Shown here: positions 18,915 through 44,117 of the stretch, piece after piece
Layout: each line of letters starts with the position of its first letter
Position numbering within the stretch: the stretch's first letter is position 1
NCBI GenBank assembly: GCA_001599295.1
Contig: BCGN01000011.1
Location: 248,001-312,000 of the forward strand
Direction of reading: 5' to 3'
Length of the DNA stretch: 64,000 bases
Source: Sporopachydermia quercuum
Lineage: Eukaryota
Notes under the pieces: generated by a model
What the model was told of the DNA's origin: nothing
The model's input: the letters and a program-made list of their open reading frames with translations, nothing else
The model's database searches: none
Translations under genes and position numbers: made by a program

Positions 18915-19604
18915 TTATCGATAAGGAGCATCAGCGTCCAAGCAGTATTGTAATTCTTGTTCCCATTTATCACCATTAGCTAATAGCTTCTCCTTGTTGT
19001 ATAATAATTCTTCTCTCGTTTCGGTACTGTATTCAACATTGGGAGTTTCAACGATGGCATCAACAGGGCATGATTCCTGGCAATAGCCACAGTAAATGCA
19101 TTTAGTCATGTCAATATCGTACTTAACAGTTCTTCTTGATCCGTCAACACGTTCTTCAGCTTCAATTGTGATAGCTTGAGCTGGGCAAATAGCTTCACAC
19201 AGCTTGCAAGCAATGCACCTTTCTTCACCAGACGGGTAACGACGTAAAGCGTGTTCACCTCTAAATCTGGGAGAAATTGGACCCTTTTCAAAAGGATAAT
19301 AAATAGTATAAGGAGCTCTGAAATATTGTTCAAGACAAATATACATTCCTCGGAAACATTCTGCCAATAAGAAAAATTTAGTTGCTTTGTCTAACGCTGA
19401 TTCAGATTGTTCATCCCATTCTTTTGCTCTGTGTAAACGGAATCCGGATGGTGGAATAGCTTCTTCAGTGCCAACAGCGGTCAAACCATTAGATTTTGTA
19501 GATGTTATAGTTCTGAGTTGAAATCCAACTCGACTGTTTGAAACAATTCTAGCTGTTAAATTTTTGTTCAATGGTCGAACAGAAGTCCTTAGTATAGAGG
19601 CCAT
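18915..19604 (-). CDS. NUIM: NADH:ubiquinone oxidoreductase 23 kDa (TYKY/NDUFS8) Fe-S subunit
   Basis: Two 4Fe-4S motifs, [12 protein letters not shown] and [12 protein letters not shown], plus [16 protein letters not shown]. Likely start ATG 19604 ([10 protein letters not shown], presequence-like); the ORF-track start is non-ATG. Confidence 0.97.
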
Positions 19605-20848
19605 TTTGTCGAATGTTGTATGCTTATGTGTGTATGTGATGATGAAGTAATTTGCTATGATGCCAGCTGTGCGATCTAATTTAAATGATGTGAAATGAAA
19701 AAACAAATTAAATCCTACTTTTCCCCTACTTTCTCTTTTATTCTATGATTTCTTCCCAAAGTTGTAATAATGATGATGTTGACTATTGGTGTATCTTCAT
19801 CCCTCGACCACATACAATCCAACTCGATTCAATTTCGAACCAACAGGTAGAATAAATGCTTATTTATAATATCACCAATAAGTAAGAGCAGTCTATCTGT
19901 CTCTGAATTACTTTTTGATTTCAGNGCTATATTGAGTTCTACAACAAAGTCCTCCCTACTATAATAATCATAGGTAATATAAAGATCCTTCTCTGCAAAG
20001 TGCTATATTATGCTATGGTGAATAATCTAGCATAGAGTGTTTTACCTGTCATAAGCAAATGAACATAATAATGGAATAATAATAATGTGATTGGTTCAAA
20101 TTACTCCTCATGCTTAGCTGGACATTTTGCTGTGTAACTCTCAACATAATGTCCGGTTACTTGATTAATGGAGGGATAACTCTACAAGAAGTTTTAGAGG
20201 GTAGTTTTTGTTACCAGTTTGAAAATACAGGGGACCTCTAAAGAGAGAATCGATAATAATTCTGCCTTGATTGGCGAAATTCATGGCGTCAACTATGCGT
20301 AAACATGTGGGACATACAGAAATATGCATAGATGGTGCTGCTGACATTAATCGCGTATATCACCTTAGAGCTATGGAGTCGTTATTTCAATTGGTAGTAT
20401 TCTGCTACATGTTAAGTTGTTATTACTCCAAAAAAACTGACAGTTGGGTGCTAAGATAATATGCCACTAAGTGAATCTAATGGCTTAATTGATATTAATG
20501 GCTACTAAAGGAGTAAAAGAGAAATGATGGGAAACACAATCAAGCGCTATTCTATGCAGTGACATCAAGCAAGCTATAAGGTTTTTCCCTTTCTAACCTC
20601 CAGTTACATGGAGACTTTTTTTTTATCATAAACAAGCTTAATCCTTTCAAAACATTATATAGATGAAATATGTATACATATTAAGACCTATTTGTGTAAC
20701 AACTAAAACAAATAAACAAATAAATAATCAGAACCAATTCAAAACAATAAACTATGTTCTCAGGTCAATCTCGTTTCAGAGATGTTTCAGATAGAATTCA
20801 TATTCATGCATGACTTGCATATAGGATCGTATTGCCTTACATTATTAT

Positions 20849-22194
20849 TGTAACAACCAGCTTATTACTAAATCCACGTGACCCTTAACGTGACACATTT
20901 GACATTTTAGATTTATCTATATTTCTATTTGTACCTTTTATATATATACTATTTACTTCGCTGATTATTTACTCTCATTCTTCTCTTTCTAATTAATAAT
21001 AAGAAGAAGGAGAAGAAGGGAAAAGAGTAAGAACTCTAATATAATTCTTCATTATTTCTTAAAATTCATTTTATTTTACTGAATGATATATGATCAGACA
21101 GTAACACTTTGTAACAACCAGCTATGCATTACTTATTACTAAACCACGTGACCTTTCACGTGACACATTGGCATTTCACATCTATCTATATTTCTATTTG
21201 TACCTTTTATATATATATACTATTTACTTCGCTGATTATTTACTCTCATTCTTCTCTTTCTAATTAATAATAAGAAGAAGGAGAAGAAGGGAAAAGAGTA
21301 AGAACTCTAATATAATTCTTCATTATTTCTTAAAATTCATTTTATTTTACTGAATGATATATGATCAGACAGTAACACTTTGTAACAACCAGCTATGCAT
21401 TACTTATTACTAAACCACGTGACCTTTCACGTGACACATTGGCATTTCACATCTATCTATATTTCTATTTGTACCTTTTATATATATATACTATTTACTT
21501 CGCTGATTATTTACTCTCATTCTTCTCTTTCTAATTAATAATAAGAAGAAGGAGAAGAAGGGAAAAGAGTAAGAATTCTAATATAATTCTTCATTATTTC
21601 TTAAAATTCATTTTATTTTACTGAATGATATATGATCAGACAGTAACACTTTGTAACAACCAGCTATGCATTACTTATTACTAAACCACGTGACCTTTCA
21701 CGTGACACATTGGNATTTNACATNTATCTATATTTCTATTTGTACCTTTTATATATATATACTATTTACTTCGCTGATTATTTACTCTCATTCTTCTCTT
21801 TCTAATTAATAAGAAGAAGAAGGAGAAGAAGGAAAAAGAGTAAGAATTCTGATACAATTCTTCAATTTTTCTTAAAATTCATTTTATTTTACTGAATGAT
21901 GTATGATCAGACAGTAACACACTTACTGTAACAACCAGCTATGCATTACTTATTACTAAACCACGTGACCTTTCACGTGACACATTGGCATTTCACATCT
22001 ATCTATATTTCTATTTGTACCTTTTATATATATATACTATTTACTTCGCTGATTATTTACTCTCATTCTTCTCTTTCTAATTAATAATAAGAAGAAGGAG
22101 AAGAAGGAAAAAGAGTAAGAATTCTGATACAATTCTTCAATTTTTCTTAAAATTCATTTTATTTTACTGAATGATGTATGATCAGACAGTAACA
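20849..22194. mobile_element. Tandem array of five solo-LTR-like units, probably Ty3/Gypsy type
   Basis: Units 20849-21106, 21110-21377, 21381-21648, 21652-21919 and 21927-22194. Each starts TGTAACAAC and ends CAGTAACA (TG...CA, imperfect terminal IR), with an internal TATATA tract and ~27% GC. Spacers are 3-7 bp. The array ends 11 bp before tRNA-Leu and contains no coding sequence. The repeat itself is directly visible; the LTR identity is inferred. Confidence 0.75.
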
Positions 22195-22205
22195 CACTTA
22201 TGTAA

Positions 22206-22288
22206 GGCAATCTGGCCGAGTTGGTCTAAGGCGTCAGGTTAAGGTCCTGATCTCTTCGGAGGCCTGGGTTCGAATCCCAGGGTTGTCA
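22206..22288 (+). tRNA. tRNA-Leu(AAG)
   Basis: Acceptor stem GGCAATC/GGTTGTC, A-box TGGCCGAGTTGG, anticodon arm TCAGG-TTAAGGT-CCTGA, long variable arm, GGTTCGAATCC, T8 terminator downstream. Confidence 0.95.
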
Positions 22289-22751
22289 ATTAAATTTTTT
22301 TTCAGTTGTCAATTCTTTTCTATCTCTTTTACATTGACAGTCGCTTGATATGTTTTGTATTTTTATAACACTTTGGTGAGCAGCTATTTGATAATAAATT
22401 AATTAAGGAAATAGAAATAAGAATTAGAAGAAGTTAAGAGTTGTGTCAACTCATACAACTTAAATGTATATATTCTCATATCAAGATGGAGAATGACTAG
22501 AATGTTATGTTCTGACGAAAACGACTCCTTCATAGTAGAAGACATAATATTGATAGCATGCACTTGATATTCTAAAATGCAAAATAGTACATAGGTTAAA
22601 AATGTATAAGAATCATCTATATGTATATGAAAGTGTATATGAATGTGAATAATGTAAATAATGTAAATAATGATAGAGTAAAATAGAGTGAGTAGTTTCA
22701 CGGTAATAGTTTTTGAAATGCTGTGGTGTTTATCAGAAAAAGATCAGTCAT

Positions 22752-26231: not shown

Positions 26232-26317
26232 TCTCCCGAGGGTGAATCGAACACCCGATCTCAAGATAACAATTAACCATTACAGTCTCGCGCCTTAGCC
26301 AACTGGGCCATCGGGAG
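26232..26317 (-). tRNA. tRNA-Tyr(GTA) with 12-nt intron
   Basis: Reverse complement CTCCCGATGGCCCAGTTGGCTAAGGCG-CGAGA-CTGTAA-[TGGTTAATTGTT]-A-TCTTG-AGATCGGGTGTTCGATTCACCC-TCGGGAG-A, followed by a T7 terminator. Confidence 0.95.
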
Positions 26318-26610: not shown

Positions 26611-27624
26611 CTAGGCAGAGAGAGGACGGGGTACAATAGAAGCAATTCGTCTTGACCCACCAAGGAAACCAAGTGTGATAGTCTTTTGAGGAAGGTTGAA
26701 CGTGCTGTTATGGAGGAGAGCGCTAACATGAAAAGATGTGGCAGTCGGTTCAAGAATTGGAGCTGTTTTCGATTTGGGTAACATGCTAACTAATGCGGCG
26801 GGCTCGGGGAATTCACCTGCAACCGTTTCATTCCAAATCTTCTTCTTTTGAGAAATATCGAGAACTGAAGAAGCAATTTCAAGCTTGTCTGAAAATGAGA
26901 TAGTCTTCCTACTGTCAGGAGTAATTTGGTAATTAGGATGCAATTCAGACTGCCTGATAAACTCACTCAATGCTCGAACAACACGGCTACCATGAGATGT
27001 GGCAGTATATGGAGAATGCTCAATTAGAGATTCAGAAGAAACTTCGTCAACCACGAACTTCTTTTCTTCTAACTTTTTCATAGGTGACACGAAGGCACTC
27101 TTAGTACTAGTTTCAAATCTATTTCGTGATCTGGGTGCAGCCGAGTTATTTCTGCTAACTTTTCGATCTTTCTTGTTATAACCACTAGGTTTAGAGAATT
27201 TGGGAGTGAATCTCTTATTGTTGTCTGACCTATTGGGTATCAATCGATTTCTTGGAGTATTGGAGCGATCGGTATCTCCATTGAAAGTTCGTTCTTGCGG
27301 AGCAAACCGCGATACTCGAGTAGGTAACGGTTCGGACAATTCAGTATTCTTCACAGTTTCGGATGAAAACTTCTTGTTTTCACTTGCCTTCTCGCGATTA
27401 CCATTCCTTCTTTGGTTACCTGGACCCCGGGCTCTTCTTTCAGTATTGGTTGTATTGGCCTTCTTTACGGCTTGCTGTGCTGCTTTTGTAGGGTCCGCCT
27501 GAATGCTTCTGATGTTTTCAATTAAAGACTGAAGACTTGATAACGCATCATTTGGTTTTGTGCCCCCATTCGTTGCATATCCACGACGTATTACAGTCCT
27601 AGTAATTGATCTGCTAAACATCAT
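26611..27624 (-). CDS. RSM28: Mitochondrial small-subunit ribosomal protein mS46 (Rsm28-like)
   Basis: Presequence-like N-terminus, basic N/R-rich middle, and C-terminal blocks (FVVDEVSSESLIEHSP...SRVV; VAGEF; LGGSRRIASI) resembling recalled Rsm28 blocks. Confidence 0.65.
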   Translation of the reverse strand: MMFSRSITRTVIRRGYATNGGTKPNDALSSLQSLIENIRSIQADPTKAAQQAVKKANTTNTERRARGPGNQRRNGNREKASENKKFSSETVKNTELSEPLPTRVSRFAPQERTFNGDTDRSNTPRNRLIPNRSDNNKRFTPKFSKPSGYNKKDRKVSRNNSAAPRSRNRFETSTKSAFVSPMKKLEEKKFVVDEVSSESLIEHSPYTATSHGSRVVRALSEFIRQSELHPNYQITPDSRKTISFSDKLEIASSVLDISQKKKIWNETVAGEFPEPAALVSMLPKSKTAPILEPTATSFHVSALLHNSTFNLPQKTITLGFLGGSRRIASIVPRPLSA

Positions 27625-43280: not shown

Positions 43281-44117
43281 TCAACCCGACAGATCAATAC
43301 TTTCTAATAACTCATCTAATTCATCCATATTATACTCATCATCATCATCATCATCATTATCAACAATGCGATCATAATTATTTTCACCATTATTCTCATT
43401 TTCATCAAATTGTTTCATCAAATATTCCAATTCTTCTTGCTCTTGTAGAATTAACTGATCCAGCAGTTTTGCTTCTTCAAGCGTTCGCCAATAATTATCC
43501 TCATCATCATCATCATTCAACAAATCTTCAATATTGATTCGATGCAATTCAGCTTGTCTATTCAACTCTTTTATTTCATTCTGCCAATTCATTTTCANCA
43601 AATCATCAACCATTTTATCAAAACCTCCACGATGCCGCAAGGCTGCTTCTTGTCTTTTTAGTTTTAGATCAGCAACAAATCTTCTAGTTGTTCGATTTCT
43701 TGCTTTAGTTAAGCTTATTGGTGATGAACTAATAGAAAAATTGCTATCCTTGATATCATTGATATTGCTATTACTGTCTACACAGCAGCCAGTATTACCA
43801 CTACCAGCACGATTAATATTTATTTCGTCAGAATAATCACGACAATGATTATTAAAGATGATATTATTACTACTGCGCACTGGTGAACTGGTTATCATCC
43901 CTTTTTTGGTATGTCTAGGTAGACTATGAACTGATGGGGTTGAATCAGTGAACCTTCTTGGTCTTCTTGATAGCTCATTTCTTGATTTTATTCTCTTTGA
44001 TGCACTATCGAGAATTGAATTCGATGTGTCATTATTTATATTGACATCTTCATTTTCGCTAGGTGAACTTGATATGGAGAAAGGATTCATTCTGTCTTCC
44101 ATTAATTGGCAATCCAT
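43281..44117 (-). CDS. RTT105: RPA chaperone Rtt105-like
   Basis: SSSPIS...R...KRQEAALRHRGGFDKM...EIKELNRQAE...QEELEYLM parallels recalled Rtt105 (SSSPIA...RGGLEKM...ELEHFL). First ATG is at 44117. Confidence 0.65.
   Translation of the reverse strand: MDCQLMEDRMNPFSISSSPSENEDVNINNDTSNSILDSASKRIKSRNELSRRPRRFTDSTPSVHSLPRHTKKGMITSSPVRSSNNIIFNNHCRDYSDEININRAGSGNTGCCVDSNSNINDIKDSNFSISSSPISLTKARNRTTRRFVADLKLKRQEAALRHRGGFDKMVDDLXKMNWQNEIKELNRQAELHRINIEDLLNDDDDEDNYWRTLEEAKLLDQLILQEQEELEYLMKQFDENENNGENNYDRIVDNDDDDDDEYNMDELDELLESIDLSG

Follow-up and report, generated by a model that had tools for sequence, protein, structure and literature searches.

How did a single transfer RNA (tRNA) gene come to be preceded by five copies of one long terminal repeat (LTR), set head to tail and all pointing the same way? 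The question is raised by a 64,000-nucleotide stretch of Sporopachydermia quercuum DNA (contig BCGN01000011.1 of assembly GCA_001599295.1, positions 248,001 to 312,000), which is referred to here at its full length as the window and whose own numbering is used throughout. In it, five head-to-tail TG...CA units occupy positions 20849-22194 ahead of a tRNA-Leu(AAG) gene and in the same orientation as the tRNA. A reading of the DNA made without database searches (the sequence-only reading) had taken these units as an ordered log of five integrations at one tRNA start site. We propose a different history, which we consider probable, in which a tRNA-aimed family of solo LTRs entered the locus by two integrations, unequal crossovers between the two resident LTRs then made the second and third units, and the fifth unit was added afterwards beside the tRNA.

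Anatomy of the array

The units are numbered 1 to 5 from the outside towards the tRNA, and their coordinates are collected with those of the junctions in Table 1. All five start with TGTAACAACCAG and end with GACAGTAACA, and the termini form short imperfect inverted ends, with TGTAAC matching the reverse complement of the last six bases (TGTTAC) at 5/6 positions. Tandem Repeats Finder describes the array as 4.9 copies of a 271-bp period with 97% matches and a score of 2434, which is far beyond chance, and a repeat search of the window gives start-to-start spacings of 271, 271, 271 and 275. No more copies of the LTR unit were found elsewhere within the 64-kb window. The TGTAA in the spacer at 22195-22205, between the array and the tRNA, is identical to the first five bases of the LTR.

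The units fall into groups by their pairwise differences. Unit 1 stands 20-27 alignment columns apart from each of the others, units 2 and 3 differ from each other at 1 column, as do units 4 and 5, and units 2 and 3 differ from units 4 and 5 at 6-8. The most diverged unit is therefore unit 1, the outermost, which relative to unit 5 carries a 10-bp deletion, a 2-bp deletion, two 1-bp insertions and 13 substitutions. The sequence-only reading had set out much of this anatomy, and the alignment bears it out: the head-to-tail array of TGTAAC...GTAACA units is present with its three CTT spacers and one CACTTAC spacer, CACTT stands before units 2-4 and after units 4-5, the ATTAT and CTTAT flanks match as described, and the outermost unit is the most diverged. 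The one correction concerns length, as unit 1 is 258 bp rather than 268 bp.

A sixth, older LTR was looked for in 20500-20848 and rejected, since the local alignment score there is 20 against a shuffle mean of 21 (standard deviation 2.7), a score of 20 being reached by 194-208 of 300 shuffles. Given this test, the occurrence of TGTAACAAC at about 20696 is taken as chance.

A dispersed family of LTRs

The nature of the unit was addressed with contigs from public runs of the same organism, which were aligned to the stretch 21905-22600 holding a single unit and the tRNA. Run X1 belongs to one study, and runs X2 and X3 belong to a single sample from a second study. The bin 22097-22120 is uncovered in this comparison, as it is a masked simple repeat, and the runs X4 and X5, which hold next to none of the query words, were left out. 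In short contigs that lie inside the LTR the word depth is 613.6, 2172.7 and 320.1 in X1, X2 and X3, respectively, against 31.1, 100.8 and 25.6 in the single-copy flank. Contig word depth is a rough guide and not a copy number, and what we take from these values is only that the LTR unit is present in many copies.

These copies have sharp boundaries. Among the X1 records listed, five of eight are contigs of 1.2-39.5 kb at a single-copy depth of 30-36 with a match that starts exactly at 21927, the first base of unit 5, and these long contigs have 3-7 differences from the unit. Loose ends before 21927 are seen in 4 contigs of X1, 4 of X2 and 6 of X3, with flanks that are unlike one another (agreement 0.52-0.54), and on the 3' side of the unit the loose ends of the run contigs begin at 22192-22196. 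The unit is therefore repeated at dispersed places, with ends that are exact and flanks that differ. We infer that the units at the locus are genuine solo LTRs and belong to an LTR retrotransposon family, whose copies would have spread by retrotransposition.

The family also varies internally. An LTR variant with a 122-bp internal deletion (22027-22150 in the coordinates of unit 5) occurs at single-copy depth in all three runs. In each 268-bp LTR of the array, a 12-bp direct duplication holds two CACGTG boxes spaced 12 bp apart (21962-21979 in unit 5, with the equivalent position in units 2-4). Unit 1 carries a single CACGTG (20875), and some genomic LTR copies in the contigs of the public runs are without 11-12 bp at this region (21962/21963), so that members of the family differ in how many E-boxes the putative U3 (unique 3') part of the LTR contains.

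Probable aim at tRNA start sites

At the 3' boundary of the LTR in the run contigs, two of the three rows listed continue with 11 nt and then a tRNA-like start, in the same orientation as here, and both of these flanks contain what we take to be a box-A-like motif. A loose-end row of X2 at 22194, in which two contigs are merged (agreement 0.67), is readable as neither tRNA, primer binding site nor flank. The distance from LTR to mature tRNA is thus 11 nt here and at two other tRNA-like loci, and it is 9 nt once, in the event that brought in unit 1. These loci support the view that the family is aimed at tRNA start sites, with a behaviour like that of Ty3 and Tj1, and by analogy with such elements it may belong to the Metaviridae, and its integrase may be tethered to the RNA polymerase III (Pol III) initiation complex (TFIIIB).

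The sequence-only reading had allowed that a unit found nowhere else would speak for local amplification. Copies with exact ends occur in three contig sets, which favours the LTR reading, and its broader claim, of a family aimed at tRNA starts to which the unit belongs as a solo LTR, gains both from the dispersed exact ends and from the two other copies that stop 11 nt before tRNA-like sequences.

Two integrations and the origin of unit 5

The flanks of the units carry the evidence for how many integrations took place. After removal of unit 5, unit 4 is flanked by CACTT on both sides (5/5), the left copy being made up of the terminal CA of the preceding LTR and CTT, and such a match has a chance of about 0.001. 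With everything inside removed, unit 1 is flanked by ATTAT and CTTAT (4/5), the chance of 4/5 or better being about 0.02 at the composition of the window. Counted from the mature tRNA, the two insertion windows are 2 bp apart, at -9 to -5 for the first event and at -11 to -7 for the second, which is the position seen at two other loci. Units 1 and 4 differ at 26 columns, including four indels, which is too much for one to be a copy of the other, and the locus therefore received two different LTRs or more. Two integrations, of unit 1 (ATTAT/CTTAT) and of unit 4 (CACTT/CACTT), are well supported by this comparison of flanks. The sequence-only reading had postulated 5-bp duplications at two adjacent positions, and candidates for these are present at unit 1 (4/5) and at unit 4 (5/5); unit 5 has no clean pair.

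For unit 5 a third integration is possible, and we favour over it a local duplication via the TGTAA that is shared between the start of the LTR and the leader of the tRNA. A duplication through TGTAA would give CACTTA at the junction of units 4 and 5, where the window reads CACTTAC. Junctions of this type that are one base shorter are present in the run contigs, at a depth of 29.1 of 62.1 in X1, 67.4 of 453.2 in X2 and 0 of 82.1 in X3. A third insertion with CTTAC/CTTAT flanks fits only if the LTR may also end in ...CACA.

Two further candidates for these junctions were rejected. A 2-LTR-circle junction as the source of CTT is ruled out, as units 1 and 4, with the 26 columns between them, are not the two LTRs of one complementary DNA (cDNA). 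Units 4 and 5 are likewise not the LTRs of one internally deleted element, as the intervening 7 bp are a copy of the tRNA-side flank (6/7) and not a primer binding site or polypurine tract.

Chimeric middle units and a proposed unequal crossover

Units 2 and 3 probably have a different origin. Unit 1 is separated from unit 5 by 27 columns that represent 17 mutational events, and at these columns unit 2 is of unit 5 type at the first 20/20 (columns 13-102) and of unit 1 type at the last 7/7 (columns 184-252). Unit 3 has the same pattern except at column 198, and unit 4 is of unit 5 type at 25/25 scorable columns. Units 2 and 3 are single-breakpoint chimeras, with a 5' part of unit 4/5 type and a 3' part of unit 1 type. 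The crossover interval in unit 2 is at approximately 21210-21290, as the sequence is of unit 4/5 type to column 102 and of unit 1 type from column 184. With 10 events on one side of the switch and 7 on the other, the probability of a single switch under random assortment is 2/19448.

The direction of the exchange can also be read. The substitutions of unit 1 are evenly spread, with 6/88 in the 5' part and 7/168 in the 3' part (Fisher p 0.38), and because its divergence is even along its length unit 1 is a parent and units 2 and 3 are the recombinants; the same even spread rules out unit 1 as the mosaic unit. As judged from the alignment, the polarity of units 2 and 3, with the 5' part from the inner type and the 3' part from the outer type, is that expected of the duplication product of an unequal crossover between units 1 and 4. 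Pairing of unit 4 with unit 1 on the other chromatid, followed by a crossover, would yield unit 1, CTT, a unit with the 5' part of unit 4 and the 3' part of unit 1, CTT and unit 4, in that order. On this reading the three CTT junctions are copies of one junction.

The LTR-CTT-LTR joint is also present in the run contigs, at a depth of 30.3 in X1, or about 1x the flank, and of 248.2 in X2, or about 2.5x the flank of 100.8. The value of about 1x in X1 may reflect a shorter array in that isolate, or it may be an effect of contig depth averaging.

Proposed history of the locus

We propose that the family inserts at the Pol III start region of tRNA genes such that its LTR would point the tRNA's way, with the U5 (unique 5') end 11 nt (once 9) from the start of the mature tRNA. 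An old element would have inserted first, with the duplication (A/C)TTAT, and collapsed to the solo LTR that is now unit 1. A younger element of the common type would then have entered at the same anchor but 2 bp farther from the tRNA, and because of this shift its CACTT duplication would take in the terminal CA of unit 1 together with CTT. Collapse of the second element to the solo LTR that is now unit 4 would have left the arrangement unit 1-CTT-unit 4. Unequal crossover between these direct LTRs, on misaligned chromatids or homologues, would next have occurred at least twice and generated the chimeric units 2 and 3, each with the 5' part of unit 4, the 3' part of unit 1 and a copy of the CTT junction. 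Unit 5 would have been added last, beside the tRNA, with TGTAA-based local duplication as the favoured route and a third integration as the alternative.

Two extensions of this history can be offered. A cDNA end of ...CACA that lets integrase join at either CA is a further possibility, which would explain the 2-bp choice between -11 and -9. With considerable doubt, we also suggest that the LTRs belong to an undescribed family of a little-studied or early-branching budding yeast. The family would be like Tj1 in having a single fixed orientation and an end 11 nt ahead of the mature tRNA, and its repeated hits at this tRNA-Leu gene would have seeded a small LTR satellite with a copy number that varies between isolates.

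Alternative explanations

The most direct alternative is that of five independent integrations at one tRNA start, with the older solo LTRs pushed outward to form an ordered log. It agrees with the outermost unit being the most diverged, with the CACTT ahead of units 2-4 and behind units 4-5, and with a family that is dispersed and tRNA-adjacent elsewhere. However, it leads one to expect a 5-bp duplication at every junction, but three of the junctions read CTT and one reads CACTTAC. Once a first CACTT event has taken place, CACTT trails the LTR, so that the next event leaves CACTT and cannot recreate CTT. The chimeric structure of units 2 and 3, with a common breakpoint interval, is also not what independent insertions of a master copy produce. 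The ordered log of the sequence-only reading is contradicted by these chimeras and by CTT junctions that are without 5-bp duplications, and we regard it as very improbable. We give equally little credence to a single LTR insertion that was followed by purely local tandem amplification, by slippage or by unequal exchange with TGTAA as microhomology, even though TGTAA is indeed found both at the start of the LTR and immediately ahead of the tRNA, the pairs 2/3 and 4/5 are each nearly identical, and the CACTTA junction variant exists in run contigs. The differences between units 1 and 4, indels included, mean that at least two LTR sequences entered the locus, units 4 and 5 match the abundant genomic type, and the perfect CACTT flanks of unit 4 fit an integration.

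A different kind of doubt concerns the assembly, as the number of units rests on this one assembly, which has 48 isolated single ambiguous bases (Ns) in the window. The true locus could consist of units 1, 4 and 5, or of some other smaller set, with units 2 and 3 being extra turns of an assembly-graph cycle: the path of a chimera, from common 5' part to common middle to unit 1-type 3' part to CTT, is a cycle in a k-mer graph, the CTT joint has a depth of only about 1x in X1, three of the Ns are in unit 4 and no run contig spans the array. The three Ns are at 21714, 21719 and 21724, in a short stretch that is variable among copies of the family. At the latter two columns (21994 and 21999 in the coordinates of unit 5) other copies have T in place of C, with no such variant listed at the column of 21714, and this suggests that the isolated Ns are ambiguity calls from consensus polishing and not gaps. 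What makes the graph cycle unlikely in our judgment is that the combination G184, T198 and A202 of unit 3 is in neither unit 1 nor unit 4, that units 2 and 3 differ at column 198, and that the CTT joint in X2 is at approximately 2.5 times the single-copy depth (248.2 versus 100.8). Gene conversion, in which an old array was overwritten by ectopic LTR copies or cDNA, fully in units 4 and 5 and in the 5' part only in units 2 and 3, has a precedent in the recombination of cDNA with resident LTRs that is described for Ty1 and Tf1 in the passages cited (PMC11042837), and the lone unit 5-type base at column 198 of unit 3 resembles a short conversion patch or a point change. This explanation nevertheless needs the same interval for the end of conversion twice, or a later duplication anyway, it leaves the origin of a unit 1-type array with CTT junctions unexplained, and it gives the perfect CACTT/CACTT flanks no part to play, all of which make it rather unlikely.

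Several observations, in addition to the graph cycle and the single-copy depth of the CTT joint in X1, weigh against the history that we propose. No full-length element, gag-pol, primer binding site or polypurine tract was seen; for gag-pol, there is no such open reading frame among the 15 large ones scanned, of 16 listed for the window. Scans of metagenomes with two LTR words gave 0 hits. The CACTTAC junction fits neither a clean 5-bp duplication nor a TGTAA duplication exactly, and the length of the duplication is indicated by this locus alone, as the contigs of other copies break inside the LTR. That the two other flanks are tRNA-like is a judgment made by eye on about 20 letters of each, and 3' variants of unit 1 type are absent among the family variants in the run contigs, in a stretch that is partly masked. 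Lastly, a pattern like that of the chimeras could result from gene conversion in patches by other copies, though more steps are needed. Two integrations followed by unequal crossover is the history that we prefer on balance.

The target gene and its surroundings

The features of the array and of its target gene are listed in Table 1. The sequence of the tRNA-Leu(AAG) is also found at at least one other locus, with other flanks on both sides and no LTR directly ahead of it (loose ends at 22206 and 22288). A second tRNA lies in the window on the minus strand at 26232-26317 and has no LTR upstream of it; ARAGORN calls it a tRNA-His(ATG), with the anticodon at position 38, the Rfam tRNA score is 48.4 bits, and by eye it is like an intron-bearing tRNA-Tyr(GUA), with GACTGTAA, about 12 nt and then ATCTTGAG.

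Table 1. Coordinates of the LTR units, their junctions and the target tRNA gene in the window
Feature	Position	Strand	Basis or remark
ATTAT, left flank of unit 1	20844..20848	+	Candidate left copy of the first target-site duplication; 4/5 against the tRNA-side CTTAT
Unit 1, old outer solo LTR, 258 bp	20849..21106	+	Alignment of the five units
CTT junction of units 1 and 2	21107..21109	+	CACTT with the terminal CA of unit 1; either the junction first made by the second integration or a copy of that junction
Unit 2, chimeric LTR, 268 bp	21110..21377	+	5' part of unit 4/5 type, 3' part of unit 1 type
CTT junction of units 2 and 3, read as a copy	21378..21380	+	Sequence
Unit 3, chimera as unit 2, 268 bp	21381..21648	+	One difference from unit 2: column 198 is T, as in units 4 and 5
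CTT junction of units 3 and 4, read as a copy	21649..21651	+	Sequence
Unit 4, younger inner LTR of the common family type, 268 bp	21652..21919	+	One private change, column 164; three Ns
CACTTAC junction of units 4 and 5	21920..21926	+	6/7 match to the tRNA-side flank CACTTAT
Unit 5, LTR adjoining the tRNA, common family type, 268 bp	21927..22194	+	Two CACGTG boxes (21962, 21974); TATA-rich stretch in mid-unit
CACTTATGTAA, 11-nt spacer from LTR end to 5' end of mature tRNA	22195..22205	+	Holds CACTT (right copy of the putative duplication) and TGTAA
tRNA-Leu(AAG), target gene	22206..22288	+	ARAGORN; Rfam RF00005 at 51 bits
Eight-T run, likely Pol III terminator of tRNA-Leu	22295..22302	+	Read from the sequence

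The protein-coding content of the window bears on the host. The open reading frame at 18915-19604 (minus strand) encodes the 23-kDa iron-sulfur subunit of complex I, NUIM, of 229 amino acids, which shares 67-87% identity with many fungal proteins, and the host accordingly belongs to a budding yeast lineage that kept complex I. The COP9 subunit 2 from the window is <50% identical to the homologues found, and the five window proteins that were looked up exactly are absent from a collection of 15 billion proteins. Two open reading frames on the minus strand, at 26611-27624 (337 amino acids) and 43281-44117 (278 amino acids), have no Pfam match.

Significance

Elements aimed at tRNA starts show how mobile DNA finds safe sites in compact genomes, and each family with a new exact rule of distance or orientation adds to the picture of how the Pol III initiation complex is read by integrases. 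The locus offers a clean natural example of a two-step process that is already known, a site-specific double hit followed by growth of the dimer by unequal exchange, in which the recombinant units can be read straight from the sequence because the founder LTRs are of different ages. There is a caution in it as well, in that an ordered stack of solo LTRs is not an insertion log until it has been tested for chimeras.

Comparison with known systems

The comparisons below follow the passages cited from the published accounts. Ty3/sigma of Saccharomyces cerevisiae, a Ty3/gypsy element, is described as having TG...CA solo LTRs at a fixed short distance upstream of many tRNA genes, as is the case here. 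The sigma LTR is about 340 bp in length and the unit here is 268 bp, the two being likened by behaviour and not by sequence. Ty3 makes a 5-bp duplication and collapses to solo LTRs (PMC5911963, PMC5014426). Its insertions fall 1-4 bp upstream of the start site of the tRNA gene, itself located about 10 bp before the mature tRNA (PMC5911963), and its LTR end is 15-17 bp from the mature tRNA (PMC5014426), whereas the LTR end here is 11 nt (once 9 nt) away, or about 5 bp closer. Ty3 uses both orientations (PMC5911963), and all three tRNA-adjacent loci here share one, in a sample that is small and biased.

The closest in behaviour is Tj1, a Ty3/gypsy element of Schizosaccharomyces japonicus, which is reported to insert at -10/-11 from the mature RNA in a fixed forward orientation and to have a 244-bp LTR and a 5-bp duplication (PMC4600332). 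It belongs to a fission yeast, and experiments have shown how it behaves, whereas the behaviour of the family here is deduced from three loci without an element body. Other yeasts outside Saccharomyces have Ty3/gypsy elements that adjoin tRNA start sites, including Tyl3, Tyl6 and Ylt1 of Yarrowia lipolytica, Taa3 of Blastobotrys adeninivorans and beta/Tca8 of Candida albicans (PMC5014426, PMC4022394, PMC5911963). The LTRs of these elements are 244-278 bp, some of the families are known as solo LTRs only, and Taa3 was found 13 bp from a tRNA (PMC4022394). They are likened to the present family by description only, and the passages cited report no head-to-tail array of solo LTRs for them.

Arrays of LTR elements are known in other forms. 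Tandem LTR retrotransposons of yeasts and plants that share an internal LTR arise from LTR or cDNA recombination and are described as common, with a highly polymorphic copy number (PMC11899658, PMC11042837); these alternate LTR and internal region, whereas the array here has LTRs only, 3-7 bp apart. A search of the literature by wording for tandem or head-to-tail arrays of solo LTRs met with no such phrase in the 30 papers listed of 56, and the main texts covered describe none at a tRNA gene, which is weak evidence of novelty and no proof that such arrays are unpublished. Surveys of dictyostelids describe how elements that arrive later push those already present away from a shared tRNA gene (PMC5006619). 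The model for unit 1-CTT-unit 4 and its expansion comes from R1, P and hobo of Drosophila, for which double insertion at one target is described as keeping the target duplication in the junction, the dimer then growing by unequal exchange (PMC5932611). Those are whole elements of other classes, whereas here the repeats are solo LTRs, the target is fixed by the tRNA gene, and the chimeras are visible because the two founder LTRs differ in age. The locus does not represent a categorically new mechanism but an additional case of a known process.

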